From positions 1-64,000 of IMG/VR virus record IMGVR_UViG_3300032235_000623: 64,000 nucleotides of DNA. One strand, given 5' to 3'. Below the pieces are notes generated by a model that saw nothing but the letters and a program-made list of their open reading frames with translations, was not told the DNA's origin and did not search any database. A program made the translations under genes and the position numbers. Numbering within the stretch: position 1 is the stretch's first letter; every line of letters starts with the position of its first letter. Below are positions 38,821 to 63,089 of this stretch, one piece after another. Source of the DNA: a virus.

Positions 38821-38933
38821 TCCAAGCACTAGTGGCTTTAGGGACCGCCCTAAACAAAAGCATGATAGTGTTGGACGCTCCCACTTATGTTAATGTGGAC
38901 ATGCAGACCTGAGTAAGTCTTTAAACTGCTCAC
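38821..38933 (+). ncRNA. Structured intergenic RNA ending in a compact H-type pseudoknot
   Basis: TCCAAGCACTA/TAGTGTTGGA, TTTAGGG/CCCTAAA, CCAC/GTGG; AGAC-CTGAGTAA-GTCT-TTAAAC-TGCTCA. Confidence 0.55.
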
Positions 38934-38951
38934 TAAGATTAAGGAAAAGAT

Positions 38952-39128
38952 ATGCCAACGTATGAATACAATTGTGTTAATTGTAAAATTAATAAGGAAA
39001 TTCCAAAGTCATTTAACGATGCAGATAGTCCTGAGCTGTGCGAAAAGTGCGGTGAAGCAATGAATAAAGTTTATAGCACATTTGGTATACAGTTTAAGGG
39101 TGGAGGATTCTACTCCACTGGAGGGTAA
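38952..39128 (+). CDS. FmdB-family zinc-ribbon protein (58 aa)
   Basis: MPTYEY.CVNC...CEKCG...K.YS....FKGGGFYST. Confidence 0.85.
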   Translation: MPTYEYNCVNCKINKEIPKSFNDADSPELCEKCGEAMNKVYSTFGIQFKGGGFYSTGG

Positions 39129-39185
39129 CTAACTTTTTCAATGATATAATTAACTTGTTATAGATGTTATAACAAGGAGTTATAG

Positions 39186-41321
39186 TTGACTAGGACTAAG
39201 TTATGGAGATTATCATTAGCAGCCATTTTGGGGTTTGGCTGGCTATTTATGACACCTGCATACAGTGACGATCCTTTAACATTAGCCGCTAAAGAAATTG
39301 AATTATTAAATAGTGCAGTAGATAAATTAGACTATAAAGAAGGTCTAATTAATATGATTGATATCGCAGAAAATAAGTTCACATATGCCAAAAATCTACA
39401 GGATGTTAGAAATACAGCAATTGCAGACTATGAAGATGCAGTTGATGCAGAAGCCTCAGCATTAGAAGAATTAGAAATTGCTCAGTCAAATGTAGATGGA
39501 CAAACAGCAACAGTAGCCCTTGCACTTGATAATAGGGACAATGCTTTTCAAAATAAAAATAACGCACAAGATGCTCTCAATATAGCTAATATTAATCTAC
39601 AAACAGCACAATCTAATATGCAATCTGCAGGTGGATCAGGACTGCAATACACTGTATATAATCTTGCAAGAGTTTGGCCAAGCATAGCTGTGCCAGATTC
39701 CGTTATATGCTCTGGAACATGGAATTCAAACTCTATGCAACTTCCTGTTTGTGGCAATAGATATGAGAATATAGTAGTTAAGTTTACAGGACAAATAACA
39801 GTTCCAGATCATTGGACATCAACATATTTTGCAGGCTATACAGATGATGGGTTTAGAATGTACATTGATGGACAACTTGCAGTAAACAACTGGGTAGAGC
39901 AAGGTGTAAGGTGGAGCAACTATTCACCAGTTTATGATGTTACAACAGACAAGACATTTGATGTAGAAATTTGGTGGTACAACGGTGGAGGACCAGGATC
40001 TTATCACCTTGGTTGGGCTATTCCTGGAGGATGGACTGGAGCAGGATGCGACTATACTGGTGGTTGGGGAGTAGGATTTAGTTGTAATCTTGGAACATTC
40101 TCTTCTGGATCAGGACCAACACAGGCACAAATAGATGCTTATAACCAAGCACTTGAAACAAGAAATGCAGCACAACAAGATTATAATAATGCACTATCAG
40201 AATATAATGACAAACTAAATGTATACAACCAAGAGGTTGCAACACTAAACTCATTAAATCAAACATTAACTAATAAAGAATCTGAGTATGATAATGCAGT
40301 AAATGACACAGAGGATGCTTTGTCTGAAAAGAATAATGCTATAAATGATTTTAATAACGCTATAAATGATCTAAATAGCGCAATTGATGACGCATGGCGT
40401 TACTATGATGAGCAGTCAAAAAGAGAAATTCAGAGAGCAATCGCTCAAGCAGCTGCCAACGCTGCTGCAAACCAGCCAAAGCCAGAGCCATCCCCAAAAC
40501 CAACAATTGAACCAGAAAAGCCAAAGCCTTCTCCGCCACCAACAGATAAACCTGAGCCTAAGCCAAGCAATGCTACTGGAACAGAAGAACCAGGTCCAAA
40601 GCCAACACAGCCAGGACCTAAGCCAGAGCCAACACAGCCAGAAAAGCCTAAACCTGAACCAACAAAGACAAAAGAGCCTAAACCAACACCTGCTCCAAGT
40701 CCTGAACCAAAACCAGAACCTACTATTGAGCCAGAGCCTAAACCACTGCCAAGACCAGAATTTAAGCCAGCAGAAAATATTGATCCAGTTATCAAAGATG
40801 CAGAGCTAGCAGCACTTATTCCAGAAAAAGGAAGCGGAAGCACAGAGGATCTTTCTGGAGTTATTGCTAATCTAACTAGCAAAGATAATAAATTAGTTAA
40901 GCTTTCTCCAGAGCAAACAGCAGCAGTAAGTCAGACCCTCAAGGCTTTGACTCAAGAAGCAAAGAAAGAAATTGCTTCAGATCTTGGAATTTCATCATCA
41001 GAAGTTACAAAGGTTGCGGATGCAATGAAGTCGGATCCCAATATAGCATCAGCATTTGTTGAGTTCTCGGAAAGAGCAGAGCAGGCTGGAGACACATCTA
41101 TGCCATTTACCTTGGCAGATGCAACAACTGAAGTTGCAACAGAAGCATTTTTATCTGATCCAATAGGAGCAATTTCGGACATTAATTTTGAAAAATTACT
41201 TAGCCCATCAGAATGGGGTAAAGATATGACTGACGATCAGAGAGAAAAGGCACAAGAGGTAGTTGTGCCTGTAATTATTGCTGGAAATATTGTGGCAGCA
41301 GCCATGACAAGGAGGATATGA
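39186..41321 (+). CDS. Secreted/surface protein: signal peptide, coiled coils, PA14 domain, Pro-rich linker
   Basis: TTG start with AGGAG; F.G.I...TDDGFRMYIDG...W.EQG...WWYNGGG PA14 motif; PEPKP repeats. Confidence 0.75.
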   Translation: MTRTKLWRLSLAAILGFGWLFMTPAYSDDPLTLAAKEIELLNSAVDKLDYKEGLINMIDIAENKFTYAKNLQDVRNTAIADYEDAVDAEASALEELEIAQSNVDGQTATVALALDNRDNAFQNKNNAQDALNIANINLQTAQSNMQSAGGSGLQYTVYNLARVWPSIAVPDSVICSGTWNSNSMQLPVCGNRYENIVVKFTGQITVPDHWTSTYFAGYTDDGFRMYIDGQLAVNNWVEQGVRWSNYSPVYDVTTDKTFDVEIWWYNGGGPGSYHLGWAIPGGWTGAGCDYTGGWGVGFSCNLGTFSSGSGPTQAQIDAYNQALETRNAAQQDYNNALSEYNDKLNVYNQEVATLNSLNQTLTNKESEYDNAVNDTEDALSEKNNAINDFNNAINDLNSAIDDAWRYYDEQSKREIQRAIAQAAANAAANQPKPEPSPKPTIEPEKPKPSPPPTDKPEPKPSNATGTEEPGPKPTQPGPKPEPTQPEKPKPEPTKTKEPKPTPAPSPEPKPEPTIEPEPKPLPRPEFKPAENIDPVIKDAELAALIPEKGSGSTEDLSGVIANLTSKDNKLVKLSPEQTAAVSQTLKALTQEAKKEIASDLGISSSEVTKVADAMKSDPNIASAFVEFSERAEQAGDTSMPFTLADATTEVATEAFLSDPIGAISDINFEKLLSPSEWGKDMTDDQREKAQEVVVPVIIAGNIVAAAMTRRI

Positions 41322-41515
41322 TGAAAATAATTAAAGGTTTATTTAATTGGATATTAGAAGCAGTTAAAGAAAGTATTGCCCAGGTATGGACCCTTCTTGG
41401 CTTCTTTATTGCTTGGCTAACACTGACTGGAACAGCCCAAGATGTTGTTGCGGTAGCTACTATTGCTGCCACTATTATATGGCTGGTAACTATCCCTCTT
41501 CGTAAAGACGAGTAA
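41318..41515 (+). CDS. Small 2-TM membrane protein
   Basis: Hydrophobic helices, GGAGG RBS. Confidence 0.65.
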   Translation: MMKIIKGLFNWILEAVKESIAQVWTLLGFFIAWLTLTGTAQDVVAVATIAATIIWLVTIPLRKDE

Positions 41516-41531
41516 ATGCTATAATAGTGGT

Positions 41532-41735
41532 ATGAGGAAGCTAATTGCTATTGCCCTGTCTGGGCTATTAATGGTATCATTGAGTAGTTGTGGGGTACCA
41601 CAGGATAGATATCGTTATCCATGCCAAGATCCAGCTAATTGGAAAAAGGCAGAGTGTAATCCTCCAATATGTGAATCTTCTGGCACATGCACAAAAGATT
41701 TAGTTAAAGACTATGAGGTAGTTCAGAATGGCTAA
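41532..41735 (+). CDS. Small Cys-rich lipoprotein
   Basis: Signal peptide with LSSC lipobox; four further Cys. Confidence 0.7.
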   Translation: MRKLIAIALSGLLMVSLSSCGVPQDRYRYPCQDPANWKKAECNPPICESSGTCTKDLVKDYEVVQNG

Positions 41736-42174
41736 AGTACGTAGAAATCCTGCAGAGCTGGATGCGTTACTAAAATTTATCCTAGGTATCACTTTAGGAA
41801 GCATTTTATTTTTTACAGCAGTAGGAATTTTGTATGGATTGCTATTTGTACAGCAACCACTAAACGGTCAATCCGAAAACGATAAAATGTTTTTTAATGT
41901 TCTTGGATCAGTTGCAACATTTATTACAGGAACACTAGCTGGACTATTAATAGGTCAGAGTGGTGCTAAGGATATCATGAAGGCACAACTTGATAATAAA
42001 GAAATGGATGCAAGAAATACTCAGGCTGACAAAAAGTTAGAATCAGAATTAGAGATTGCAGAAAAAAAAGTTGATGTTGAACTAGATGCAGTAAGAGCTC
42101 GTTTAGCTGCTAAGCCAGATGGAGCAATGCCAGCAGAACAAGCAGTCGACACAGATTGGGATAAGGAAGACTAA
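41728..42174 (+). CDS. Putative holin (2 TM)
   Basis: Two TM helices plus charged tail, directly upstream of endolysin. Confidence 0.5.
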   Translation: MAKVRRNPAELDALLKFILGITLGSILFFTAVGILYGLLFVQQPLNGQSENDKMFFNVLGSVATFITGTLAGLLIGQSGAKDIMKAQLDNKEMDARNTQADKKLESELEIAEKKVDVELDAVRARLAAKPDGAMPAEQAVDTDWDKED

Positions 42175-42176
42175 TA

Positions 42177-42776
42177 ATGGCACAAGATGATTTTCCAGTA
42201 CCAGCAGAAACTGCTAAGGCTCCAAAAGGTAGCGTTGCTCGTCTTATTCAAATCGCTAAGTCTCAAGTTGGATACATTGAAGGTCCAAAAGACAATGAAA
42301 CAAAGTATGGTGCTTACACAAAGGCTAACTTCCAGCCATGGTGTGGCTCATTTGTAAACTGGTGTGCAAACGAAGCTGGCGTAAAGATTCCTAATACAGT
42401 TTATACTCCAGGTGGTGCAGCAGCATTTAAGAAGGCTGGTGCATGGATTGATGGAGACATTGCAGATCCAGAGCCAGGTGATATTGCCTATTTTGATTTC
42501 CCATCAGATGGTGTCGATAGAATTTCTCACGTAGGTATTGTTGTTGAAGACAACGAAGACGGAACAGTCTGGTGTATTGAAGGAAATACTTCTTCTAATA
42601 AAAAGGGAAGTCAAAGAAATGGCGGAGAAGCTTGTAAGCAGCTTCGTGCATATAAGAAAAATAAAGCAGGAGTAATGGTTTCAATTGTAGGGTTTGGACG
42701 TCCAAAATTTAAATCTACATCAACCAAGTCATCATCTCCATCAGATGGAAAAGTCTGCCCAACTTGTGGCAAATAA
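42177..42776 (+). CDS. CHAP-domain endolysin
   Basis: PWCGSFVNWC, P.PGD, SHVGIV, IEGNT. Confidence 0.88.
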   Translation: MAQDDFPVPAETAKAPKGSVARLIQIAKSQVGYIEGPKDNETKYGAYTKANFQPWCGSFVNWCANEAGVKIPNTVYTPGGAAAFKKAGAWIDGDIADPEPGDIAYFDFPSDGVDRISHVGIVVEDNEDGTVWCIEGNTSSNKKGSQRNGGEACKQLRAYKKNKAGVMVSIVGFGRPKFKSTSTKSSSPSDGKVCPTCGK

Positions 42777-42791
42777 AATTGAAGGATAAAA

Positions 42792-43571
42792 ATGTCTAAA
42801 GAAGGATATAAGCCAACATCAGGAATGCAGTCTGCAGCAAGACGTGCCATTAAGCTAAAAGAACAGGGAAAAGCAAAAGGTGCTGGAACTGCAGTTGGTT
42901 GGACAAGAGCTGGACAATTAGCAAGAGGAGAAACTTTAAGTCTTTCTACAGTTAAACGTATGTACTCTTATTTTTCTCGACATGAAGTAGATAAAAAAGG
43001 AAAAGACTGGGATAATGCAGAAAGCCCATCAAATGGTAAGATCATGTGGCTTGCCTGGGGCGGAGATGCAGGATATTCATGGTCAAGAAAAATTGTTGAA
43101 AGAGAGAAGAATATGAAAAAATCATTAGAATTAAATGAGATAGTGGAAGAGATTAAAGATATCCTTGATGACGTAGTTAACCCAATTACCAAGGCAATTG
43201 AAGTTGAGATTGAAGAAGACGACGAAGAGGATGACATGGAAGACACTGAGGGTTGTGACTGTGAAGGTTGCAAGGAGTGCAAAGCAAATGGTGGATGCAC
43301 AGAAAAGATGTGTTCAGGACATAAGAAGATGAAGAAGTCTGATGATCTATCAGATGAAGATATCTCAAAGTCTTATGAGTCAGATAACGAAGAAGAAGAC
43401 AAGTGGGATAACATGGAGAAGGCTTGCTGGAGTGGTTATGTGCAGCAAGGCATGAAAGAAAAAAATGGTAGAAAAGTTCCTAACTGTGTACCAATTAAAA
43501 AGGCTACAGATGTAGAGGAAAAAGAAGAGCCTGTAAAAAAGTCTATATGGAGTGGAACTTTTTTAAAATAA
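42792..43571 (+). CDS. Hypothetical, possibly head-associated protein
   Basis: Conserved-looking N-domain (VG..RA.QL...RM.S.F.RH...W..WGGDAG..W), acidic linker, CW.GY...G.K......PNCVP module. Confidence 0.6.
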   Translation: MSKEGYKPTSGMQSAARRAIKLKEQGKAKGAGTAVGWTRAGQLARGETLSLSTVKRMYSYFSRHEVDKKGKDWDNAESPSNGKIMWLAWGGDAGYSWSRKIVEREKNMKKSLELNEIVEEIKDILDDVVNPITKAIEVEIEEDDEEDDMEDTEGCDCEGCKECKANGGCTEKMCSGHKKMKKSDDLSDEDISKSYESDNEEEDKWDNMEKACWSGYVQQGMKEKNGRKVPNCVPIKKATDVEEKEEPVKKSIWSGTFLK

Positions 43572-43635
43572 ACTATTGACATAGATAGCATACCTCTGTA
43601 TACTATTACAGTAGGTTCAACCAAAAAATGGACTT

Positions 43636-43869
43636 ATGTTACATTTATATGAAAATGGAGTAGAGATACTCAGAAAAAAGATATCTAGTAAAAATGTAGA
43701 TACCTATTGGGATAACTATAATTTTATTATATGGGAAAAAAATCAAGGCGGATATTCAGATACAAAAGGTGTATTTAGAAACAATTCTTGGGGAATAGCT
43801 AATACTATTCATATAAACCAAAACGGAACTTGGATATTACCGCTAAAGTATGTCAAATATTTTAAATGA
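43636..43869 (+). CDS. Hypothetical protein
   Basis: ORF after promoter TTGACA-N17-TATACT (43576-43604). Confidence 0.6.
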   Translation: MLHLYENGVEILRKKISSKNVDTYWDNYNFIIWEKNQGGYSDTKGVFRNNSWGIANTIHINQNGTWILPLKYVKYFK

Positions 43870-44164
43870 ATTAGGAACAGACGAAGACAAGTTCGCTTGG
43901 TGGGACATTGCAGTCTGTTCTGGCATGGAAACAAATCTTTTTTATGATACATACGAGTCTGATCATAATATTGCAAAAAATATTGATCAAGCTTGTTTAT
44001 CTTGTCCAGTTATTGCAATATGCTATAAGAATGGAACTGAGAATAATGAGTATGGAGTTTGGGGCGGAGTTTATTTAAATTTCGGCCAGCACGATAAGCA
44101 AAGAAATACGCATAAGAGTAAAGAGATTTGGAAGGAATTGAAACGTAAACATGCCCAAATCTAA
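43850..44164 (+). CDS. whiB: WhiB-family Fe-S transcription factor
   Basis: W...A.C...LF...C..CPV...C...YGVWGG. Confidence 0.88.
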   Translation: MSNILNELGTDEDKFAWWDIAVCSGMETNLFYDTYESDHNIAKNIDQACLSCPVIAICYKNGTENNEYGVWGGVYLNFGQHDKQRNTHKSKEIWKELKRKHAQI

Positions 44165-44480
44165 TATGCACGACAATAAACATTTTAAGCATGGAATCAA
44201 TATGTGGACTGGTGAGCCAAATAAACCAGTTTTTTATAATGATGAAATGAGAAAAAGATTAAGAGAAATAAAAAGACCACATATGCTAATGATGGATGTA
44301 GCTATGTACCCAGAATTTTTAGCTTTAAGATTATATGAAGATAATTTTATTCAATTTAGTGGAACTAAAAAAGAAGAGGTTATCGATTATGTTACAAAGG
44401 TTAAAAAAATGATCGAGTCTTACGGAGTAAGATGCGAATTAGAAGGGGTCCCAAGTGATAAGTCCATCGGAAAAATTTAA
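44151..44480 (+). CDS. Hypothetical protein
   Basis: ORF track. Confidence 0.6.
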   Translation: MPKSNMHDNKHFKHGINMWTGEPNKPVFYNDEMRKRLREIKRPHMLMMDVAMYPEFLALRLYEDNFIQFSGTKKEEVIDYVTKVKKMIESYGVRCELEGVPSDKSIGKI

Positions 44481-44628
44481 TGTATATATACCTTCTGAAG
44501 AAGAGTACGGATATATAGAATCATTAGGAGCTTTTGTTTCAGAAGTTTCTTATACAAAAAATGGAGTTGTTTACAAAGAAATGATTGAGAACGAAGATTT
44601 TGTGATTATTGATGAGGAGTCTAATTAA
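44455..44628 (+). CDS. Small hypothetical protein (57 aa, GTG start)
   Basis: Open frame filling gap, TAATG coupling downstream. Confidence 0.45.
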   Translation: MISPSEKFNVYIPSEEEYGYIESLGAFVSEVSYTKNGVVYKEMIENEDFVIIDEESN

Positions 44629-44864
44629 TGGAAAAGATATTGTGTTATTCATGCAACAAAAGTAAAGCAAACCTTACACTTGTCAAATCTTCACTGCTTG
44701 GCATAAACTTATTCATGTGCGAATCTTGCAAATCAGAAAAGATGGAGCCAAGATGGGTTGTAATTATCGCTGGAAGACAAAATGGATCTGAGTCTGTAAA
44801 AGATTTTATAGCAAAAAAGCGATATCTTGGAAATGAAATTTCGGCTTCTGAATTATTAATTTAA
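44628..44864 (+). CDS. Small Zn-finger protein
   Basis: CYSC...CESC; GAGGAG RBS. Confidence 0.6.
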   Translation: MEKILCYSCNKSKANLTLVKSSLLGINLFMCESCKSEKMEPRWVVIIAGRQNGSESVKDFIAKKRYLGNEISASELLI

Positions 44865-44897
44865 TTAAATATATTTATCAGGTATAATATATCTATA

Positions 44898-45218
44898 ATG
44901 AAAATAGATATAGCTACCCTTATTTTGTCATTACTTGCAGCAATTTTGAGCGGAATGGGAACCGCCATAATTGCTGGAATTAAAGACTCAAAAAAGGAAA
45001 AGGTTAGACGCCAAGAGCGTGACCAAGACCATCTTAAAATGGAAATAAAAGATTTAAAAATTCAATTATATGAGCTAGAAAAGCAGTTGACTGAATGGAA
45101 AGATAAATATTATCATGCAATTCAGCAATTAATTGAAGTTAAGTCTGAATTAGAACAAACATTAATTCAATTAGACCATATTAATATACATGTGGAAGAG
45201 CAGTCTAGCAATCAATAA
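44898..45218 (+). CDS. Membrane-anchored coiled-coil protein
   Basis: N-terminal TM plus heptads. Confidence 0.65.
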   Translation: MKIDIATLILSLLAAILSGMGTAIIAGIKDSKKEKVRRQERDQDHLKMEIKDLKIQLYELEKQLTEWKDKYYHAIQQLIEVKSELEQTLIQLDHINIHVEEQSSNQ

Positions 45219-45240
45219 ATAAAAATAGTACAATAGAAGC

Positions 45241-45807
45241 ATGACTTGTATTGTAGCCGTTATCCATGAAAACAAAGTTTATCTTGGCGGAGATTCCGCT
45301 GCATCAGACGACAAAACTGGGCTCATAGTTCAAAGAACTGATCCAAAAGTTTTTAAGGTTGGACAATTCGGTATTGGGTTCACAGATTCTTTTAGAATGG
45401 GACAGATACTTCAGTATAATTGGACGCCACCTAAGTATGTTCCAACAGTTGGCAATAAAAATTTAGATAAATTTATGCGAACTAAATTCGTTGATTCAAT
45501 CAAGGAAGTATTCAAAGAACATGGATACGGAAACTTTGGATCCAACACTGAAGATGGAGATGAGGGTGGCATATTCCTTGTGGCGGTAGCTGGAACTGGA
45601 AGAATATTCACTATAGATTTAGACTATCACATCGGAGAGGCTGACGTAATGTACATGGCTGAAGGAAGTGGTCAGCAAGTCGCATTGGGATCATTATTCT
45701 CAACAGCACAAGTAAAAACACCACGTAAGCGTGTCAGAATGGCCCTAGAAGCCTCAGCAAAATTTATTATGAGCGTACGTGGCCCCTTTACAATAATAGA
45801 AGTATAA
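45241..45807 (+). CDS. Ntn-hydrolase, HslV/proteasome-beta-like protease
   Basis: N-terminal Thr (MTCIVA), GGDS, K33-equivalent PKVF, GSG...A.G.L. Confidence 0.75.
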   Translation: MTCIVAVIHENKVYLGGDSAASDDKTGLIVQRTDPKVFKVGQFGIGFTDSFRMGQILQYNWTPPKYVPTVGNKNLDKFMRTKFVDSIKEVFKEHGYGNFGSNTEDGDEGGIFLVAVAGTGRIFTIDLDYHIGEADVMYMAEGSGQQVALGSLFSTAQVKTPRKRVRMALEASAKFIMSVRGPFTIIEV

Positions 45808-45821
45808 AGTATAATTAAACT

Positions 45822-46037
45822 ATGAAGGATCCCAAGGATATCAATCACTTAAAGCCCAATTATGATAAAGCTATGGATATTCGTGGTGTCCCAACACATG
45901 TGTGTCCCTGCGGATGTGAAGTGTTTAACTTAAAAGTAATTTTTCATAACTATGAGATAGCAAGTTACTTTATAGATATGGAATGTGCGAGCTGTGGAAC
46001 AATCGCAACAGCGCCAACCCCCTTAGATATGGAATAG
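45822..46037 (+). CDS. Small zinc-ribbon protein
   Basis: CPCG...CASCG. Confidence 0.65.
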   Translation: MKDPKDINHLKPNYDKAMDIRGVPTHVCPCGCEVFNLKVIFHNYEIASYFIDMECASCGTIATAPTPLDME

Positions 46038-46042
46038 TATAA

Positions 46043-46213: not shown

Positions 46214-46250
46214 TATTGACAGAACTCAATAATTATTGTATTATTCATTT

Positions 46251-47388: not shown

Positions 47389-47394
47389 AATTAT

Positions 47395-55734: not shown

Positions 55735-56027
55735 CAGAGTACTGGTCGTATCTCTTAGCAGCAATTGGCGTTACAGGCATATTCTTTGTTGGTCGAAAGA
55801 CCATTTGGGGATGGCTGATCTTATTATTAAATGAATGTATATGGATAGCATACGCATTAGCCACGGATCAATATGGGTTCATTATCATGGCTACAGCCTA
55901 TTCTGCTGTATATATTAAATCTTTTATATCTTGGAAGAAAGAAGAAAAAGAAGAACATATCTCACAATATGAGATTAATACTCATGGTCAAATAGATCAT
56001 AGATATATACATATTGATCGCAATTAG
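55731..56027 (+). CDS. PnuC-like small membrane protein
   Basis: Three TM; G.K..WGW...L..E..W..YA..T.QYGF. Confidence 0.6.
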   Translation: MTEYWSYLLAAIGVTGIFFVGRKTIWGWLILLLNECIWIAYALATDQYGFIIMATAYSAVYIKSFISWKKEEKEEHISQYEINTHGQIDHRYIHIDRN

Positions 56028-56497
56028 TGAAGCGCAAAAGTAGAGAGCAGAATTTCGAATATATGACAAAAAAAGAGATCATATTCGCCTTATATAATCA
56101 AGGCATGTCGTACCGACAAATCAAAGAGCAAACTGGCTTTTCAAAAGGCACCATTTCCTATCATTTGGGCGAAGGGGTCAAAGAGAGGGCAATGGATCGG
56201 CGGAAGCAGGATAGACATAAAATTACCACCTATATCAGAGAAGAAAAGGTGGGCAAGGTATGTATGGACTGCAGAGAAGATTATCCCCATTGGATTCTAG
56301 AATTTGACCATAGACCAGGGGAGGAAAAGAAATTTACCATTGGTACCCATAATATCGCTAGAGACAAATCACTAGATGAAGTTAAAGATGAAATAGCTAA
56401 ATGTGATATCGTATGTGCTAATTGCCATAAGAATAGGACATACTGGAGAAAGCTCAAGAATGGAGTCTATCCAGCAACCAAGGAACTATACGACTAG
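56027..56497 (+). CDS. HTH + HNH endonuclease
   Basis: GMSYRQI....G.SK.TISYH; CMDC...LEFDH...C..VCANCH..RT. Confidence 0.8.
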   Translation: MKRKSREQNFEYMTKKEIIFALYNQGMSYRQIKEQTGFSKGTISYHLGEGVKERAMDRRKQDRHKITTYIREEKVGKVCMDCREDYPHWILEFDHRPGEEKKFTIGTHNIARDKSLDEVKDEIAKCDIVCANCHKNRTYWRKLKNGVYPATKELYD

Positions 56498-56498
56498 G

Positions 56499-57026
56499 AT
56501 GAACTCTTGGCAATATGGGCTTACAGCCCAAGAAGAAGCCTTGTGTGTAGAGGTAGGATATCAGCGTCAAAAGCCATACTTTGGCGATCCTAGCAAAAAC
56601 ATTAATTATGCTGAAGGTGACCTATGGGAGATGTGGCAGCATGTCATATGTGCAGGGTCTGAGCTAGCATTTGCCAGAATGATGGGTAATAAGGAATTTG
56701 TACCTCATGTGAACAAATGGAAGACTGAATTAGATATCCCAGGTGTTGGTGAGATAAGATACTCGTTTAATCCAGATGGTGGACTTAGATTCACAAATAG
56801 GGATAATCCTGATCTCAAATATGTATTATTAATTGACGGGATGGCTATCAAAAATAGGACGGGGAAGAACGAAGAAAGACGAAGTACTCCCTATAAAGCT
56901 ATAGGATGGCTATATGGACATGAATGTATGAAGGATGAATATCTATCTAAATACAATAATAGAACATGGGTTGTACCTCAGAGCAAATTAAAACCTATGC
57001 CTAACCATATTAAACCAGTTGACTAG
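56499..57026 (+). CDS. Hypothetical protein
   Basis: ORF track, start trimmed to 56499. Confidence 0.6.
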   Translation: MNSWQYGLTAQEEALCVEVGYQRQKPYFGDPSKNINYAEGDLWEMWQHVICAGSELAFARMMGNKEFVPHVNKWKTELDIPGVGEIRYSFNPDGGLRFTNRDNPDLKYVLLIDGMAIKNRTGKNEERRSTPYKAIGWLYGHECMKDEYLSKYNNRTWVVPQSKLKPMPNHIKPVD

Positions 57027-57049
57027 AATATATATAGTATAATATAGAT

Positions 57050-57202
57050 ATGAGCATACTCGACAATTTAGAAGCATATCTAGAATTAGAAGAATTAGAT
57101 CCACTTGGTAAATCTTGGAAAGATGCACCAGATTGGTGTGACGATTGTGTAGCAAATCCTGGAGAGAAATGTCCAGATTGTGGCTATACACATAATTGCT
57201 GA
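57050..57202 (+). CDS. Zn-finger micro-protein (50 aa)
   Basis: Leaderless; CDDC...CPDCGYTHNC. Confidence 0.5.
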   Translation: MSILDNLEAYLELEELDPLGKSWKDAPDWCDDCVANPGEKCPDCGYTHNC

Positions 57203-57754
57203 AGCTCCACAAAATAGGACATATTAGCTCCTAGCTCCTATATCCCCCTCCTAATTATCTCCTCTCTATGAGCCTCCTAGAGGCTTTTAAAGTGGAGTAA
57301 AGTGGAGTATTGTGGAGAATATTACTATCAATTCATGTCTAATTACTATTATTATATATAGATAAAGATATATGAGTAATTGAACACCATCTCACAATAT
57401 GGACGTAATCCCAATTTGAGCAATTTGCAGCATATTCTGCCATTTCTGTCAATAGTGGCATATTCAGGCAATTTTGTCAAGCCTTCGTAAAGGAAAAATT
57501 GTGCCCATTTCGCCAAAAATTTGATCCAAATTCTGACAGATATTATATCTATTTTATTATATTGTTATAACATTTTGTTATATTCTATATTCATTTTGTC
57601 TTATTCTGATCAAAATTTCAGGGACATTTTATAAGCTGTCGTAAACGAATTATTTGGCCCATAATTTTTTCATAGAAAAAGGACCTATACATCCAAAATG
57701 TACATCATGTACAAATCGGACATATAGGTCCAGTGGAAATATGTTTATTTAGTT
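57203..57754. other. 550-bp non-coding convergence region with short repeats and AT-rich tracts (candidate origin or terminus region)
   Basis: 6x CTCC then 3x GTGGAG at 10-bp period, AT-rich stretches, duplicated motifs; strand switch. Confidence 0.55.
57676..57731 (-). terminator. Intrinsic terminator of minus-strand operon
   Basis: GGACCTATA...TATAGGTCC long hairpin followed by T5 on minus strand. Confidence 0.65.
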
Positions 57755-58162
57755 TTATGGACCAACTGTTGCAACTGCCTGGAAATGAGCTGTTTCTCCA
57801 TGGTAGTCTCCATGTAGCCATTTCTTATCAGATTCTTGATATAGGTTCTCAATTGATTTAGTTTTATGTTGTTTTACATTAGGGATTTTGATATTATTAA
57901 ATTCCCGCTTTTCTTTAACTAAGTTAATTGCTTTATGTAGGTTATTGGCTAGGATTAAGCCTTCGCTTGTATTGCCTTCCGCCAACTCAACATCATATCG
58001 TTGCTTCATTGAGAATACGATATTTACAACGAGTTCCATTACCTTATCAACTGTATAAATTGGCTGATTAGATAAATGCCGTGCCACCGCTGCCGTGTTG
58101 AAGAAATGGTCTTCGACACATGAAGCAACTGTGTCTGCTAGTTTTGTTTCTCTTGGTTGCAT
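57755..58162 (-). CDS. Hypothetical protein
   Basis: ORF track. Confidence 0.65.
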   Translation of the reverse strand: MQPRETKLADTVASCVEDHFFNTAAVARHLSNQPIYTVDKVMELVVNIVFSMKQRYDVELAEGNTSEGLILANNLHKAINLVKEKREFNNIKIPNVKQHKTKSIENLYQESDKKWLHGDYHGETAHFQAVATVGP

Positions 58163-58240
58163 TTGTTTCCGCCTTTTCTATAGAACCGTTGATTATATCA
58201 GAAAGGGCTGACTTGCGCCAGCCCTTCCCACATTATGAGA

Positions 58241-58387
58241 TTACTTCTTTGAGCTTGGGGTTTCTGCTGTAAACTTGATACCCTGCTTCTCTGCCTCTGC
58301 AAGTACGTTCTTTGCAGCTGATGAGAAACGACCACGGCGGCCTACAGAGATTCCCTTTGATACTAGATATTCACGCTTTGTTGTCAT
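58241..58387 (-). CDS. Lsr2 C-terminal DNA-binding-domain-like micro-protein (48 aa)
   Basis: MTTKREYLVSKGISVGRRGRFSSAAK; GAAAGGA RBS; own promoter TTTACA-N17-TATAAT (58423-58451). Confidence 0.65.
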   Translation of the reverse strand: MTTKREYLVSKGISVGRRGRFSSAAKNVLAEAEKQGIKFTAETPSSKK

Positions 58388-58513
58388 TTGATTTGATCCT
58401 TTCATGATCGGTTGTTATATATATTATATAAGATATTCACGAATTTGTAAATACCCTCGTAACTATTTTTTTTATCCCTTATATGTTTATTTAGTTATAT
58501 TAAATTAGTTATA

Positions 58514-58684
58514 TTAATTAACTAATTCGTAGTCATATGGGTCAATAGAGTTATCTATCTCTAATTGGATCCATTCTGTTCTATCTGCAGCATCAGCCTT
58601 TTCATAGGCCTCCTGCAAGCTTTCCGCCTCCACCTCCAGATAATACTTGTCTACAAGGTCTCCGAATATTTTGAATTTAGTCAT
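58514..58684 (-). CDS. Small acidic protein
   Basis: EVEAES..EA...A motif. Confidence 0.6.
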   Translation of the reverse strand: MTKFKIFGDLVDKYYLEVEAESLQEAYEKADAADRTEWIQLEIDNSIDPYDYELVN

Positions 58685-58988
58685 CCTCTTCCTCCTCATC
58701 TTCTTCAAACATTAAGTCTGTCATAATATCATTATCTGTCATCCAGTCACGTACATCTTCGTAGTGCTGTTCTGCCCCGTATTCTAGAGAGAACCCGTGT
58801 CCGTTTTTAACAGACTCACACAGCCTGTCCCATACCTCATCCTCTGACATCTCAAAGCGGTACTCCTCATCGGCCATAAAACCCTTGATTGTGCTCCAGG
58901 TCCATAGCCAAACCAGGGATAGCCCCAGGTCCGTTGTATCTAGGATATCGAGACATTGGTTTAGTTTATCTTTATCTTGTGGCTTCAC
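58677..58988 (-). CDS. Acidic hypothetical protein
   Basis: ORF track; GTG start after GAAAGGA. Confidence 0.6.
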   Translation of the reverse strand: MKPQDKDKLNQCLDILDTTDLGLSLVWLWTWSTIKGFMADEEYRFEMSEDEVWDRLCESVKNGHGFSLEYGAEQHYEDVRDWMTDNDIMTDLMFEEDEEEEDD

Positions 58989-59262
58989 GTTGCTTGGTCC
59001 TTTCATTAATTGAGAATGCTAATTGATAAGTTAATCCATATACAGCAGTCAAGGCGTCCATATAGCCTTCGTTGTACAGCCGCTCCACAGTGTCATCGTA
59101 GTCTTCATCTGAGCCCAATTCATTTGAGTTCTGTAGAAGAGGAACGAGGACCTGCTCGCATTCATACATCATGTTCTTCAATTCACCATGCAGAATGTCT
59201 GTCCCTGACTCACCAAGGTCGACGAGTTTCTGCAGGCGTGGTTCTAGTTCTGTAGTGTTCAT
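58972..59262 (-). CDS. Hypothetical protein
   Basis: Leaderless after TATAAT. Confidence 0.6.
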   Translation of the reverse strand: MNTTELEPRLQKLVDLGESGTDILHGELKNMMYECEQVLVPLLQNSNELGSDEDYDDTVERLYNEGYMDALTAVYGLTYQLAFSINERTKQREATR

Positions 59263-59465
59263 TGGGCCATTATATCCTCTGCCACTGACAAAAAGTGGCG
59301 GGTAGCAATAATCTGTCCATTGATAGAGATATCCTCAATCTCTAAAGACTGATACTCATTTGATTCCATTTCTTCAAATAAATCCATTTCAGCCTGTAGA
59401 GCCTCAGAATCTTGCTCTAAACTAATTAGATGTAACTTCATATATTCGATTAATTGATTAGACAT
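59259..59465 (-). CDS. Hypothetical protein
   Basis: ORF track. Confidence 0.6.
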   Translation of the reverse strand: MSNQLIEYMKLHLISLEQDSEALQAEMDLFEEMESNEYQSLEIEDISINGQIIATRHFLSVAEDIMAQ

Positions 59466-59571
59466 TTACTACCTCATATCTTTGAGTTAATCTATCATAA
59501 TATCTAGCAGCCTGACATGTGCAACTAAATATACCTGGTACATCTGAACATTCCCATTTATGTTCATGCAT
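59458..59571 (-). CDS. His/Cys micro-protein (37 aa)
   Basis: MHEHKWECSDVPGIFSCTCQ... Confidence 0.4.
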   Translation of the reverse strand: MHEHKWECSDVPGIFSCTCQAARYYDRLTQRYEVVNV

Positions 59572-59728
59572 GATCGAAATACCCTTCTGCCCATAGGCCT
59601 TGTAAGAAATCATGAGCCATAACTAAATAATTATGAATTGCAGGATTATCATCAGCATTGACCAATAGGTCAGCTTGATAAACACCATACGTCATATCTG
59701 CTAAATCTTTTTGTGTGTAGCCCAACAT
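59564..59728 (-). CDS. Hypothetical protein
   Basis: MLGYTQKDL...FLQGLWAEGYF. Confidence 0.55.
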   Translation of the reverse strand: MLGYTQKDLADMTYGVYQADLLVNADDNPAIHNYLVMAHDFLQGLWAEGYFDHA

Positions 59729-59895
59729 TATTTTACTTCCCAATACTCTAGTATTAGATTTAATGCAGAATGGATATTGCAATCACAATCCCCACCCATG
59801 TTATCCATAAATTCTAGATGACTATAATTGTCATCATAGATTTCATCTACTAATTGACCTACTGTCATTGCTCTTAGTTTGCTAATAGTTCTCAT
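59728..59895 (-). CDS. Small hypothetical protein (55 aa)
   Basis: H...CDCNIH motif; coupled at both ends. Confidence 0.5.
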   Translation of the reverse strand: MRTISKLRAMTVGQLVDEIYDDNYSHLEFMDNMGGDCDCNIHSALNLILEYWEVK

Positions 59896-60665
59896 GCTTC
59901 CACCTTTTCTGTAGATTCCAATAATACACTATGGGTCTGACATTCTTTCATAGCCTCTTCATCCTGCCAAGAGCCTTGGTTGCATTCTGAGCAGAATTCA
60001 CCACAGTCATCTTCACAATAATCTAATGTATTAAATGATTGGCAAGCATAGCAGCGATTCTCATATTCTAGAATCTCTTTTACTTCACCACGGACAATCT
60101 CATATTCCCCACCCCAACCTGTTTCTTCCTCATACTCCAATGTGAGCAGGCAGTTTGGAACAAGATTAGATAGTTTAGTTAGAATAGTTACAGCAGGTGA
60201 CCATGCAGTCTCATATTTATAGACAACCCAGTTGTCATCACCATCTGACTTATATTCAATTATTTCTGTGTTTGGATACTTGTCATCATCAGATACAGCC
60301 ACATCCCATTTGGTGCCCCAATTAGAATTATTCCATGAGTACCAATCCTTTTGAGTCTTAGCAAACTCAACAGATTTAGCAAACCAATTAGGGTCCTTCA
60401 TATCTACACCATCACGTGCAGGCTGGCAGGCATACTCCTCATCAGTAATACCTTCATCTTTATATGAGTGGATATTAAAGAAAGCAAAGACAGGATTAGA
60501 ATAAGTTACTTCTTTAAATTTGGTGGGGAAACCCATAGATGAAATATCACCCATACCATGTGTCTCAATAGCCAATGTAAAAGGCTTATTCAATCTATCT
60601 TTAATCATATCTACCTCAGACTTAGGTCCTTGGATAGTCAATGTGTTATATACCCAATTTGGCAT
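59892..60665 (-). CDS. DUF1281/YubB-like protein with C-terminal Cys-rich domain
   Basis: MPNW..N.L.I.G, WY.W...NWGTKW, TAWSP, YEEE. Confidence 0.75.
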   Translation of the reverse strand: MPNWVYNTLTIQGPKSEVDMIKDRLNKPFTLAIETHGMGDISSMGFPTKFKEVTYSNPVFAFFNIHSYKDEGITDEEYACQPARDGVDMKDPNWFAKSVEFAKTQKDWYSWNNSNWGTKWDVAVSDDDKYPNTEIIEYKSDGDDNWVVYKYETAWSPAVTILTKLSNLVPNCLLTLEYEEETGWGGEYEIVRGEVKEILEYENRCYACQSFNTLDYCEDDCGEFCSECNQGSWQDEEAMKECQTHSVLLESTEKVEA

Positions 60666-60826
60666 TATCGGCACACTCGCTTTGTTACATATTTGTAATA
60701 TGTATATGCTTTAGAAGATTTATCCTTAACTTGATATCTCTTATATGTACATACCTCAGCATTTGCTGGGGCGGAAACAATAGGAAGTAATCCTAGTATA
60801 ATACCTGCGATAATAGTTTTACGCAT
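60665..60826 (-). CDS. Small secreted basic peptide (53 aa)
   Basis: Signal peptide ...APANA; mature part bracketed by two Cys; AACGAAAGGA RBS. Confidence 0.55.
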   Translation of the reverse strand: MRKTIIAGIILGLLPIVSAPANAEVCTYKRYQVKDKSSKAYTYYKYVTKRVCR

Positions 60827-60853
60827 TTTATATCCTTTCGTTGATATAAGAGA

Positions 60854-60875
60854 ATTATACATTGGACCACCGACA
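60854..60875 (-). promoter_or_regulatory. TGTCRG-N10-TAYAAT promoter (also 58192-58213, 59269-59290, 62695-62716, 62863-62884)
   Basis: Five copies with identical 22-nt geometry upstream of minus-strand genes. Confidence 0.7.
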
Positions 60876-60893
60876 AATGGAATAGATATGCTG

Positions 60894-60998
60894 TGTGAAT
60901 TGGACCACATTGTTAGGTTTTGATCAAAGCTTGTTAGGTTTAATTAGATCTATTGTTAGATTTTATCAATCATTGTTAGGTTTGTGGTCAATATCACA
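60894..60998. repeat. Four TTGTTAGRTTT direct repeats flanked by two CRP-like boxes
   Basis: Repeats at 60910, 60931, 60953, 60973; TGTGA-N6-CCACA and TGTGG-N6-TCACA. Confidence 0.75.
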
Positions 60999-61063
60999 GA
61001 ATTTCAGGAGATTTTGACTTGACCTCGTAAAAGAAATAATGTACTCTCTTGTCTTTGTGGGCA

Positions 61064-61222
61064 TAAAAAGATCCCCCGCCGATACCGCAGTATCAAGCGG
61101 GGGAATTATAGTAGGGCTGCCTGGCCAAACGAAAGGAATTAAGTAAATGCCTGCGTACTTAGCGACTTGGCGAATGCCTTAGTAGCCGCACCCCACATCC
61201 AAAGACAAACTAGTTGCCTAGG
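61064..61222 (-). ncRNA. Candidate small RNA with own -10 and terminator
   Basis: TGATATAAT at ~61227-61235, rod-like fold, terminator TCCCCCGC...GCGGGGGA-TCTTTTT. Confidence 0.55.
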
Positions 61223-61231
61223 ATTATTATA

Positions 61232-61636
61232 TCATACTGGAAGAAGTTCGTCCGAATACTTTTCACAGAATGCGGACAGGTCCATGGTAAATAAAGCCTC
61301 ATTCTTCATTCCACGTACCTTGTTTGACTGATTCCTAAAGTCATCTTGCTCATGAAGACTAAAGGTTTGGTCCTTCCAATTAATTACAGGAATCTTGTGC
61401 TCATTGTCTGATAGAGAGTTGACCTGTAGACCCCAGCCAGTCTCCATATTCCATTGGTCACCAATTAGACGTGATGTAGCAATGCGTGTTGCATATGAAT
61501 CATCGTTCCAACGTGCTCGTGCATGGACTACAGCATCCGCTAAATTCTTTAGCATGTCATAGCCAGCCCAGTGTCCGTATAGTACAATTGTCTCTCCGCT
61601 ATCCTGTACGAATACGAAGTTTGCTCTGTTACCCAT
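61232..61636 (-). CDS. Hypothetical protein
   Basis: MG.RA...LY.HW.G...ARW.D.SY..R motif. Confidence 0.7.
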   Translation of the reverse strand: MGNRANFVFVQDSGETIVLYGHWAGYDMLKNLADAVVHARARWNDDSYATRIATSRLIGDQWNMETGWGLQVNSLSDNEHKIPVINWKDQTFSLHEQDDFRNQSNKVRGMKNEALFTMDLSAFCEKYSDELLPV

Positions 61637-61637
61637 T

Positions 61638-61844
61638 TTATTCCGCCGTTTCTAGTTGAGGTGTTTCTTCTGTCTTATTCAATTCTATAATTTCATATGA
61701 CACCTTGTCAAGTGCCTCTTTATTTTTATTGTAGTGGTGCCCGCAGAAAGCTAGCTCGCCTTCTACTAATTTAATTAAATACATAGCTTGGGCGGACCCA
61801 CATTGGTCGCAGCCAATCCATCTATTTAAATCGTCTGTGCTCAT
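61638..61844 (-). CDS. Small Zn-binding protein
   Basis: CDQCG.AQA...L.FCGHH. Confidence 0.65.
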   Translation of the reverse strand: MSTDDLNRWIGCDQCGSAQAMYLIKLVEGELAFCGHHYNKNKEALDKVSYEIIELNKTEETPQLETAE

Positions 61845-61987
61845 ATATTATTCTCTTCGATCATATCAGCAAGACGGTCAAGCAACCAGGTATCGATATC
61901 GTTAATATCAATCTCTCGTAACTTTTCTATGATTTCTTCACGAGCAAATTTATACCCGTCATCAAATCCATCTTTATAATCTGACAT
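61841..61987 (-). CDS. Small hypothetical protein (48 aa)
   Basis: AGGAG RBS; MSDYKDGFDDGYKFAREE... Confidence 0.55.
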   Translation of the reverse strand: MSDYKDGFDDGYKFAREEIIEKLREIDINDIDTWLLDRLADMIEENNI

Positions 61988-61995
61988 ATTATCTC

Positions 61996-62199
61996 CTAAT
62001 AACCTGTTGTTTCATATTCGCTAAAATAAGTTTCAGTTAAGTTAAACTTATCTCTAATGCGACTTACTTTCTCAATACTACCAGTTCCAATGTTGAAAGT
62101 CAACGGTCCAATTAGTTGAGGGTCAAGTCCAGTTATCTCGGCATCCCAGAAGGCCCTTTGCAGGGCCAACTGAGATGGAGCGGTGAGTTCAAAATACAT
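61996..62199 (-). CDS. Hypothetical protein
   Basis: ORF track. Confidence 0.6.
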   Translation of the reverse strand: MYFELTAPSQLALQRAFWDAEITGLDPQLIGPLTFNIGTGSIEKVSRIRDKFNLTETYFSEYETTGY

Positions 62200-62855
62200 T
62201 AGTAAGCCTCACGAACATGGCAGACTTCTTGCTCATCAATAACGATGTTGCCATCCTGTGCATCGACATATAGCGCATCTGTAATTTCTGATTCAAGGTC
62301 ATAATCTTCTAATAGATTTAGTGTAATTGTTCCGCTAACTTCAACAGTTGCGGTAAATTCCACATCCTTGGTTAATTCAATGCCAAGCGCTTCAGCAATT
62401 GACTGCAAAGTATCTTGGTCGTCTGAATCAGCATATGACTCAAGAATAATATCTTTAACTGTATTAATCTTAGACTGAAGCAGGCTAACAGTTTTCTGTG
62501 ACTGTCGTCCATTGTGCAGGTCCCACTCAAGAGATGCAACCTTTGATGTTGTATATTCAGGGTCAGAATATCCGTGAATAACTTTATATGTAACTAGTAA
62601 ATCAGGATTGTAAGCAACTGCAGGTGAATGAAATGCATCTGAGCCAATTGTTGTTGTTTCCATCGTTTCCTCTTTCGTTGTAGTTATAGGTGGTATTGTA
62701 GCATCTTCCACTGACAATAATGTGCAATTAGAGTTGCAACGACATGTGAGGTCCATCACACCCGCTGGCCATCCATATCCATCTTTAATTGTATATTCGA
62801 TTAAAGCATCACAGTCTCCCGTGCATACCCAGGTGTATTTCTGATATGTTGTCAT
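62199..62855 (-). CDS. Hypothetical protein with N-terminal Cys domain; second in-frame start at 62663
   Basis: Leaderless ATG at 62855; internal promoter and GAGG RBS before ATG at 62663. Confidence 0.6.
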   Translation of the reverse strand: MTTYQKYTWVCTGDCDALIEYTIKDGYGWPAGVMDLTCRCNSNCTLLSVEDATIPPITTTKEETMETTTIGSDAFHSPAVAYNPDLLVTYKVIHGYSDPEYTTSKVASLEWDLHNGRQSQKTVSLLQSKINTVKDIILESYADSDDQDTLQSIAEALGIELTKDVEFTATVEVSGTITLNLLEDYDLESEITDALYVDAQDGNIVIDEQEVCHVREAY

Positions 62856-62980
62856 GGCGAGTATTGTACAGGACCCCACTGACATTTACAAGGATTTTCG
62901 GGAAAAAGCTTTGTGATACGTAACACATTTTTTTGGCCTTCAGATCTGGGGGCATCTCATTATCTGAGATTCAAATCTTG

Positions 62981-63054
62981 CGATCTGTATGGGACTTGAA
63001 CCCACGACCTCTACCGTGACAGGGTAGCGCTCTAACCAACTGAGCTAACAGACC
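62981..63054 (-). tRNA. tRNA-Asp(GTC)
   Basis: GGTCTGT/ACAGATC acceptor, CTACC-CTGTCAC-GGTAG, GGTTCAAGTCC. Confidence 0.95.
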
Positions 63055-63059
63055 AAATG

Positions 63060-63089
63060 GTGAGCAGTTTTAAATCTTGCTCAGGATTT
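63060..63089 (-). ncRNA. Second copy of compact pseudoknot motif
   Basis: AAATC-CTGAGCAA-GATTT-AAAAC-TGCTCAC. Confidence 0.6.

Follow-up and report, generated by a model that had tools for sequence, protein, structure and literature searches.

The 64,000-nucleotide (nt) window analyzed here comprises positions 1 to 64,000 of IMG/VR virus record IMGVR_UViG_3300032235_000623, a 108,849-nt record that is 91% complete and encodes tail, portal, protease, and DNA polymerase genes. Two of its intergenic regions, on opposite strands, each carry one copy of a small RNA element, 29 to 30 nt long, that is predicted to fold as a pseudoknot (Table 1). Copy 1 lies 103 nt past the stop codon of an Hsp20 gene and about 18 to 19 nt ahead of the ATG of a gene encoding an FmdB-type zinc ribbon protein. 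Copy 2 lies 6 nt past the stop codon of a DUF932 gene, and 5 to 6 nt beyond its end is the 5' end of a tRNA-Asp, where RNase P cleaves. Each copy has the orientation of its neighboring genes. A preliminary description, made from the sequence alone, had placed the two copies between genes, in sense, and next to FmdB-type, DUF932, and tRNA-Asp genes; the sequences and positions that it quoted are exact on re-reading, and the three neighbors were confirmed by PF09723, PF06067, and ARAGORN, respectively. A BLASTN search of INPHARED with both loci returned no close phage relative, the only matches being to the DUF932 and tRNA parts.

Table 1. Coordinates of the pseudoknot copies, their neighbors, and related loci (window positions unless a genome position or a locus is given)
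Feature	Position	Strand	Sequence, evidence, or context
Pseudoknot copy 1	38905..38933	+	AGAC-CTGAGTAA-GTCT-TTAAAC-TGCTCA-C; R1 model, 49.8 bits, E 2e-13
Copy 1, stem 1	38905-38908/38917-38920	+	
Copy 1, loop	38909-38916	+	CTGAGTAA, parsed as C-TGAGTA-A
Copy 1, linker	38921-38926	+	TTAAAC
Copy 1, tail	38927-38932	+	TGCTCA
Pseudoknot copy 2	63060..63089	-	AAATC-CTGAGCAA-GATTT-AAAAC-TGCTCA-C; R1 model, 53.6 bits, E 1e-14
Copy 2, stem 1	63089-63085/63076-63072	-	
Copy 2, loop	63084-63077	-	CTGAGCAA, parsed as C-TGAGCA-A
Copy 2, linker	63071-63067	-	AAAAC
Copy 2, tail	63066-63061	-	TGCTCA
Third copy	genome 64592-64635, just beyond the window	-	TGAC-CTGAGTAA-GTCA-AGTGCTAAAC-TGCTCA; covariance model, 37 bits
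Hsp20 gene	38391..38801	+	PF00011, phrog_432; upstream of copy 1
FmdB-type zinc ribbon gene	38952..39128	+	58 aa; PF09723 (Zn_ribbon_8), 36.8 bits versus cutoff of 34.4; directly 3' of copy 1
DUF932 gene	63096..64000, continuing to genome 64307 beyond the window	-	PF06067, E 1.5e-55; cistron upstream of copy 2
tRNA-Asp (GTC)	62980..63054	-	ARAGORN; Rfam RF00005, 69 bits
Hsp20-locus relatives	L250-L253, L264-L280, about 1870-2000 in each		
Type III hammerhead-like ribozyme, L003	13773-		directly 3' of the knot
Type III hammerhead-like ribozyme, L192	3150-		directly 3' of the knot
DUF2800 RNA, L013	285-445		
DUF2800 RNA, L139	5432-5592		
DUF2800 RNA, L148	5051-5208		
DUF2800 RNA, L163	1598-1754		
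DUF2800 RNA, L181	3467-3621		
DUF2800 RNA, L196	1691-1849		

A degenerate 25-mer spanning the loop, linker, and tail has two sites in the window and none in 100 shuffles. A third copy lies just beyond the window, ~60 nt past a stop codon and 33 nt before the next ATG. On comparative grounds, the element is solidly predicted to be a free-standing RNA of ~28 nt that folds as an H-type pseudoknot; this fold had been proposed in the preliminary description, and relatives show compensatory changes for both of its helices. The consensus consists of a stem 1 of 4 to 5 bp with a closing C-G pair, an 8-nt loop (C-UGAGYA-N), a linker ending in AAAC, and a tail, UGCUC(A), that pairs with the loop as helix 2. 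This matches the compact classical H-type geometry, in which a 1-nt loop 1 (L1) spans a helix of 5 to 6 bp and an A-rich, 6-nt loop 3 (L3) spans one of 4 to 5 bp. Nested folding cannot show such a knot: helix 2 alone amounts to about -6 kcal/mol, and the z-scores are unremarkable for two of the three copies.

Stem 1 was judged in an alignment of 126 distinct copies (A1). The pair next but one to the loop is GC in 49 of these, AU in 34, CG in 21, and UA in 16, and the following pair is UA in 59 and AU in 58; the closing pair is C-G in 120 of the 126 rows. Overall, 96.7% of the stem 1 cells are paired, compared to 83% in shuffles, and every slid register falls below 40%. The compensatory difference in stem 1 that had first been noticed between the two window copies holds, as does the exchange of C-G for U-G between loop and tail, and hundreds of relatives agree with both.

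Because helix 2 was fixed by the search pattern behind A1, that alignment is unusable for judging it. Copies were sought without requiring loop-tail pairing, either with a model of stem 1 only (R1) or by scanning for a C-G-closed hairpin plus AAAC and recording the six bases that come next. Pairing with the copy's own loop is seen for all 26 variant tails, and pairing with its own tail for 17 of 20 variant loops, whereas randomly dealt tails give a mean of 5.5 and a maximum of 9. Covarying loop/tail combinations include CTAAGCA/TGCTT, CTAGGYA/TGCCT, CTGGGYA/TGCCC, CTGGACA/TGTCC, CTGGCCA/TGGCC, and CTGAGTA/TACTC. Furthermore, in a gapless alignment of 150 rows (A2), chosen for resemblance to the consensus of each side independently and blind to pairing, 97.1% of the helix 2 cells are paired and four of the six pairs have changes on both sides; sliding the partner strand by 1 to 3 columns lowers pairing to 23 to 35%. 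The outermost U-A pair is weak, its A being replaced by U, C, or G in ~15% of copies.

The conservation extends to positions outside the helices. When copies were anchored on the helix 2 strands alone, all 47 of the real copies had the first C of the loop, the closing C-G pair, and the AAAC at the linker end. Helix 2 is followed by a single junction base that is free to vary, and inserted hairpins are tolerated there (L009 and L025). G is nearly absent (2%) directly after the tail, a position at which it would pair with the first C of the loop and remove L1.

These data also bear on whether the element acts as RNA at all. U-G is found at one helix 2 pair in 28% of copies, and since this would be a C-A mismatch on the other strand, the fold belongs to the sense RNA. 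An element working at the DNA level (for instance, a palindrome bound by protein, a site of recombination, or a hairpin promoter in single-stranded DNA) might be suggested by the inverted repeat TGAGCA/TGCTCA and by the -10-like boxes near some copies. However, the covariation of two interleaved helices, the tolerance of G-U pairs on one strand only, and the strong strand bias relative to transcription leave this explanation a next to negligible probability. A hairpin promoter of the T7 or N4 type in particular was rejected, as there is no RNA polymerase among the large open reading frames (ORFs), the sequence past TGCTCA is unconserved, and the loop-tail covariation needs RNA.

The preliminary description had assigned the element to no named family, and none was found in Rfam 15, where searches with the whole window (at the gathering score) and with two segments around copy 1 (at E up to 10) returned only tRNAs and noise, the latter being snoR28, H19_3, and mgtC_leader around copy 1 at E of 2 to 5. 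Neither STAXI RNA (RF01728) nor drum RNA (Rfam; Weinberg 2017) matches around copy 1 at E up to 10 or across the window at the gathering score. Full-text literature searches yielded no description of the element; the candidates of the RAGATH study (Weinberg et al. 2015) were outside that comparison. The element appears to be uncatalogued.

It is nevertheless common. The covariance model and searches of phage metagenomes that the preliminary description had suggested turned up both further homologs and covariation. When the 17-base pattern CTGAGNAA-N(4-8)-AAACTGCTCA was scanned over IMG/VR, the matches listed included more than 118 contigs; the spacing is 6 nt in 110 of the 136 matches listed, and the free loop base is C or T in all but one of them, the exception being a likely chance match. 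With a stricter 20-base pattern, more than 118 species-representative bacterial genomes from more than 10 phyla are among the matches listed. The carriers include many Saccharibacteria and other Patescibacteria, Bacteroidota, Lactobacillaceae, Clostridia, and alpha-, beta-, gamma-, and deltaproteobacteria, along with Cyanobacteria, Omnitrophota, Aminicenantes, Chloroflexota, Actinomycetes, and others. The phage types that carry the family are very different from one another. They include two cultured phages: the knot is 7 nt past an annotated stop codon in Paracoccus phage ParMal1 (Autographiviridae) and ~10 nt past one in the T4-like cyanophage S-RIM4, making experiments feasible. Related phages of ~100 kb have 4 to 7 copies each, packed into 4 to 6 kb.

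In appearance, the knot most resembles the frameshift knots of luteoviruses (beet western yellows virus and others), with which it shares a stem 1 of 4 to 5 bp, a 1-nt L1 consisting of C, a stem 2 of 5 to 6 bp, and an A-rich, 6-nt L3 ending beside a C-G pair. Those knots follow a slippery heptamer in an overlapping frame; the present element is intergenic and has neither, and a tRNA, a ribozyme, or a convergent gene lies 3' of it. A role as a -1 frameshift or read-through signal was rejected on similar grounds, since copies are intergenic after stop codons, often in several frames, and precede a tRNA, a hammerhead, or a convergent gene.

The preQ1-I riboswitch (RF00522) and the pistol ribozyme (RF02679) are also built like the knot: in each, an A-rich or AAA linker separates a small hairpin from the 3' strand that pairs with its loop. 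The element has the defining features of neither. For preQ1-I there is no model match even at E of 10 and no queuosine gene context, the neighbors being DUF932, tRNA-Asp, Hsp20, and FmdB-type genes. The pistol consensus has, downstream of its P1 hairpin, P2 and P3 stems with a G-U cleavage site, as well as a pseudoknot strand between P2 and P3 (PMC4604425), while the element has nothing conserved past the tail, no P2, P3, or G-U site, and no Rfam match.

The same layout raises the broader question of a ligand or protein site, i.e., either an aptamer of the riboswitch type or an operator recognized by a translational repressor or chaperone. A short hairpin, an A-rich linker, and a 3' tail pairing with the loop recall preQ1-I and SAM-II, the sequence is strictly conserved, and copy 1 is located 18 nt ahead of a start codon. 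However, no Rfam aptamer matches even at E of 10, the junction base varies freely just where a pocket would be, most copies are behind genes rather than in 5' untranslated regions (UTRs), the neighboring genes are unrelated, and the carriers are too diverse for a single phage-encoded partner. We regard this reading as very improbable, and among the four functions proposed in the preliminary description (nuclease blocking, processing, protein binding, and an aptamer), the aptamer is the least likely, given the free junction base and the many unrelated upstream genes.

Genomic position was analyzed for 197 intergenic copies, drawn from loci of both phages and bacteria. In 177 of the 197, the knot shares its strand with the upstream gene; it shares it with the gene downstream in 147, while in 28 that gene is convergent. 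Among the 177, 100 copies lie within 12 nt of the upstream stop codon, and in the phage set the stem starts mostly 4 to 9 nt past the stop codon and never less than 3 nt. The upstream gap is smaller than the downstream gap in 113 cases, compared to 31 cases of the reverse (P = 4e-12), and the next start codon is found at broad distances, with medians of 42 to 64 nt. Copy 2, between the DUF932 stop codon and tRNA-Asp, thus occupies the typical place of the family, and its order of knot and tRNA-Asp recurs in 26 other loci. The preliminary description was correct in placing copy 1 before the ribosome-binding site of the FmdB-type gene, but this location is atypical. In three Saccharibacteria loci (L143, L152, and L184), nothing but the knot lies between convergent genes, so that no downstream gene is served there.

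A different arrangement is seen in 24 loci encoding relatives of the Hsp20 protein, in which the knot is found at a distance 3' of the Hsp20 gene. In most of these, GGTATAAT or GCTATAAT, a perfect -10 box (TATAAT), directly follows the Hsp20 stop codon; next come a conserved, hairpin-rich leader of 55 to 76 nt and the knot, and 3' of the knot there is a U tract in some loci and the ribosome-binding site of an FmdB-type gene in others. This stretch (Table 1) may be a small promoter-proximal RNA ending in the knot. The -10 box is absent from the window's own Hsp20 locus, and the 103-nt spacer that separates Hsp20 from copy 1 is no more stably folded than its shuffles (z of -0.54). These loci, together with copy 1 and the third copy, indicate that the module is used also in leaders or at the ends of short RNAs.

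An apparent overlap with coding sequence was noticed in metagenome-assembled genomes of Deltaproteobacteria and Aminicenantes (L136, L138, L147, L154, L157, L173, L176, L194, and L198). A short frame there ends in ...HC(S/x)xGC... or ...CSTCGS..., and its stop codon is apparently the UGA within the conserved loop (CC-UGA-G). The last codons of a small zinc-ribbon-like ORF thus seem to lie within the knot in these genomes.

About half of all copies have no recognizable partner, and an Rfam scan of twelve multicopy loci revealed only tRNAs, so that most copies are without a known partner RNA. The partners that were recognized lie on one side. A tRNA starts 3 to 13 nt 3' of the knot in 29 copies, 26 of which precede tRNA-Asp, and no tRNA was found to end within 40 nt upstream of a knot. 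A hammerhead core is located right after the tail in 8 to 11 of 293 copies and upstream in 0 of 293, and its cleavage site is 5 to 12 nt past the tail. Type III hammerhead-like ribozymes are found directly 3' of the knot in L003, L004, L091, L127, L160, L192, and L215; L091 has a variant hammerhead core, CUGAAGA, as well, and in L127 the Rfam gathering score is reached only by another hammerhead, ~200 nt 5' of the knot. The idea that the tail doubles as hammerhead stem III, forming a switch, was rejected because stem III begins past the tail, with no overlap, in L127 and L192. No type III core (RF00008; CUGANGA...GAAA with three stems) is present in or beside the window copies.

In six Clostridia-type loci (Table 1), a DUF2800 RNA (RF02960; 124 to 160 bits) adjoins the last base of the tail, and a small gene ending in ...FSELYAIEADL lies 5' of the knot. 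This RNA is a separate element: the Rfam model excludes the knot, and outside these six loci, the window included, the knot occurs without DUF2800 RNA. In addition, a run of four T residues is found within 14 nt past the knot in 20% of copies, compared to 2% in a control region. The bases after the tail lean toward A-C-C-A, with C in 50% of copies at +1, C in 42% at +2, and A in 41% at +3. Mimicry of a tRNA acceptor end with ACCA was rejected, as just 22 of 212 copies have CCA after the tail, which is about the expectation for independent positions, and these are mostly tRNA-Asp loci.

The U tracts suggest a signal to RNA polymerase, namely, a hairpin-free intrinsic terminator or attenuator in which helix 2 closes before the U tract or, alternatively, a cis-acting antiterminator like put. 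Loci of the L264 type read TGCTCA-TTTTTTATTT after a short promoter-proximal RNA, the knot is the sole element between convergent genes at three loci, and in ~100-kb phages it clusters in 4- to 6-kb regions of an early type, all of which speak for such a signal. However, the U tract is absent from 80% of copies, and a tRNA-Asp or hammerhead 3 to 13 nt downstream must be cotranscribed with the knot, which rules out efficient termination at those loci. Neither window copy scores as a terminator, there being no terminator-like site (a G+C-rich hairpin plus a U tract) at either, and an antiterminator would make no sense between convergent genes. A polymerase signal is therefore highly unlikely.

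The proximity to cleavage sites is open to a reading in which the knot itself is cut, either as a mimic of the substrate of a universal endonuclease (a tRNA-acceptor-like coaxial helix for RNase P or a site for RNase III or RNase E) or as a very small self-cleaving ribozyme. According to a published rule of thumb, "sophisticated" RNAs occur in several phyla and have a pseudoknot and several invariant unpaired bases (PMC5737381). The knot has all of these properties, its setting is the ribozyme-rich regions of phages, and the flank past the tail leans to A-C-C-A. Yet a cutter would be redundant 3 to 13 nt before a tRNA 5' end or a hammerhead site, which is where the knot is enriched; CCA is present in 10% of copies only, roughly the single-position expectation; no known ribozyme model matches; and the lone base at the junction varies and can accommodate inserted hairpins. 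We consider a processing signal of this kind distinctly unlikely.

The position just behind stop codons could instead reflect a roadblock or insulator against traffic moving 5' to 3', such as ribosomes after termination or read-through, Rho, or scanning RNase J or RNase E, so that a downstream tRNA, ribozyme, structured RNA, or ribosome-binding site folds and survives. The architecture of frameshift signals (a 1-nt L1, an A-rich L3, and a conserved C-G pair at the junction) would suit this role, as would the distance of 4 to 9 nt past the stop, which corresponds to the mRNA entrance of a terminating ribosome. The knot also lies directly ahead of structured RNAs (tRNA-Asp, hammerheads, and DUF2800 RNA), and leader-like copies, such as copy 1, fit. 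However, the next gene is convergent in 28 copies, with nothing downstream to protect in L143, L152, and L184, and the distance to the next start codon is broad. A roadblock is unlikely, though less so than the other rivals of the reading favored below.

Tentatively, and with somewhat less than even confidence, we favor the reading that the knot caps the 3' end of the upstream cistron and insulates it. Set against the functions that the preliminary description had put forward, the context favors end protection or insulation, as the copies are anchored behind stop codons and directly ahead of tRNA 5' ends and hammerhead cleavage sites. The knot would be a punctuation module of polycistronic phage and prophage transcripts, placed at the 3' boundary of a cistron and directly ahead of a cut or an end: cutting by RNase P at a tRNA 5' end, cleavage by a type III hammerhead, a U tract, or a convergent gene. 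RNase P, the hammerhead, termination, or another cut would create an end a few bases 3' of the knot, leaving the upstream message with a compactly knotted 3' end, which base triples would probably reinforce. Such an end would stall 3'-to-5' exonucleases, sparing the stop codon and the coding part, and the knot would keep a downstream structured RNA from mispairing with upstream sequence.

For copy 2, the DUF932 message and tRNA-Asp would be cotranscribed and the 5' end of the tRNA cut by RNase P, leaving a DUF932 message capped by the knot followed by CCAUUU. At the leader-like places of copy 1 and the third copy, the same fold may be an insulator or a 5' stabilizer. 3'-to-5' exonucleases are present in nearly all bacteria, and the breadth of the family, over more than 10 phyla, fits a target common to all of them, e.g., PNPase or RNase R.

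Several observations weigh against a 3' cap. About a quarter of the copies are not stop anchored, including copy 1, which has a place like that of a 5' UTR element and atypical for the family, and the third copy, which lies 3' of a strong hairpin (GGGGGCTAG...CTAGCCCCC) and a -10-like TGTTAGAAT box. In the Hsp20 relatives, the knot belongs to a 5' leader or forms the terminus of a short RNA. In L157, L210, and L223, an ordinary terminator hairpin follows the knot, and such a hairpin would by itself protect the 3' end. An A-rich linker in the minor groove of stem 1, as in frameshift knots, resists unwinding in the 5'-to-3' direction, and by analogy this resistance would fit a roadblock on upstream traffic better than a 3' cap. 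Finally, a plain stabilizer is not obviously in need of such strict sequence conservation across phyla.

This last point is the reason that more exotic readings are kept alive, as a simple cap does not fully account for the strict conservation of the unpaired C and of AAAC across phyla. It is possible, though doubtful, that the knot is a factor-independent, cross-phylum device of ~28 nt, either a bacterial and phage counterpart of the exonuclease-resistant RNAs of viruses (xrRNAs) that mechanically stops exonucleases and thereby defines message ends in phage operons or an RNA that is biochemically active in itself, e.g., as a minimal ribozyme or as a decoy for RNase P. Such an activity would explain why the unpaired C and AAAC do not vary over more than 10 phyla.

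In function, the proposed cap would work most like the structured 3' ends left by RNase III in phage T7 or like viral xrRNAs. The RNase III sites of T7 early genes (R0.3, R0.5, R1.1, and others) are long, irregular hairpins that are cut within the structure. Like the knot, they are intercistronic structured RNAs, and the folded 3' end left by cleavage stabilizes the upstream message; but they are cut inside by RNase III, while the knot has only 28 nt and the identifiable cuts are made 3 to 13 nt downstream by RNase P or a ribozyme. The xrRNAs of flaviviruses and plant viruses are ring-like folds of 45 to 70 nt that block the 5'-to-3' exonuclease Xrn1. They are likewise compact, sequence-constrained, pseudoknotted viral folds, and a mechanical block to an exonuclease may be common to both; the knot is smaller, is borne by phages and bacteria, and would face a 3'-to-5' enzyme instead.

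Hammerheads offer a precedent for the setting. They flank prophage genes, and it has been proposed that long transcripts are thereby cut into single-gene messages (Perreault et al. 2011; PMC3088659). Hammerhead punctuation (RF00008) resembles the knot in sitting between small phage genes, but the knot has no hammerhead core, and most knots, including both window copies, are without any ribozyme. The pseudoknots described in PMC3088659 are contacts between loop I and loop II inside the ribozyme, which are distinct from the knot module, and the element is not described there. What would be new is a tiny, cross-phylum pseudoknot form of structured intercistronic punctuation or end stabilizer.

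The family is of interest for several reasons. We know of very few structured RNAs of such small size whose sequence is almost invariant in phages of Proteobacteria, Cyanobacteria, Bacteroidota, Firmicutes, Saccharibacteria, and other groups, and to our knowledge, those known to be as short and as conserved have all proved to be riboswitches or ribozymes. The present element is absent from Rfam 15 yet common. Its fixed place provides a testable handle on why phage operons teem with self-cleaving ribozymes and lone tRNAs and on the fate of the RNA pieces after cutting. If the block to exonucleases is real, the knot would also be a compact part for stabilizing synthetic bacterial messages.

Other features of the window and of related phages were recorded alongside these results. 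A cluster of six tRNAs (Arg-TCT, Asn, Lys, Trp, Ser-GCT, and Leu-TAA) occupies positions 37580 to 38320 on the plus strand, and a separate tRNA-Met is at 32674 to 32748 on the same strand; in contrast to the lone tRNA-Asp on the opposite strand, none of these is preceded by a pseudoknot. We also found that an 11-mer, AGATCGCAAGA, occurs twice in the window. One copy (38800-38812, plus strand) is directly 3' of the Hsp20 stop codon and 100 nt 5' of pseudoknot copy 1, and the other (62990-62978, minus strand) extends across the 3' end of tRNA-Asp into its trailer. The duplication may be a recombination scar or may be due to chance.

In the ~100-kb relatives, perfect TGTGA-N6-TCACA palindromes, a half-site pattern of the CRP/FNR type, recur between small early genes, as do the boxes GGCGTGTCG and ATGTCCGATTT. 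Some of these palindromes and boxes are found 20 to 80 nt past pseudoknot copies (L030, L073, L080, L111, L015, L065, and others), and as a set they look like an array of promoters and operators ahead of each gene.

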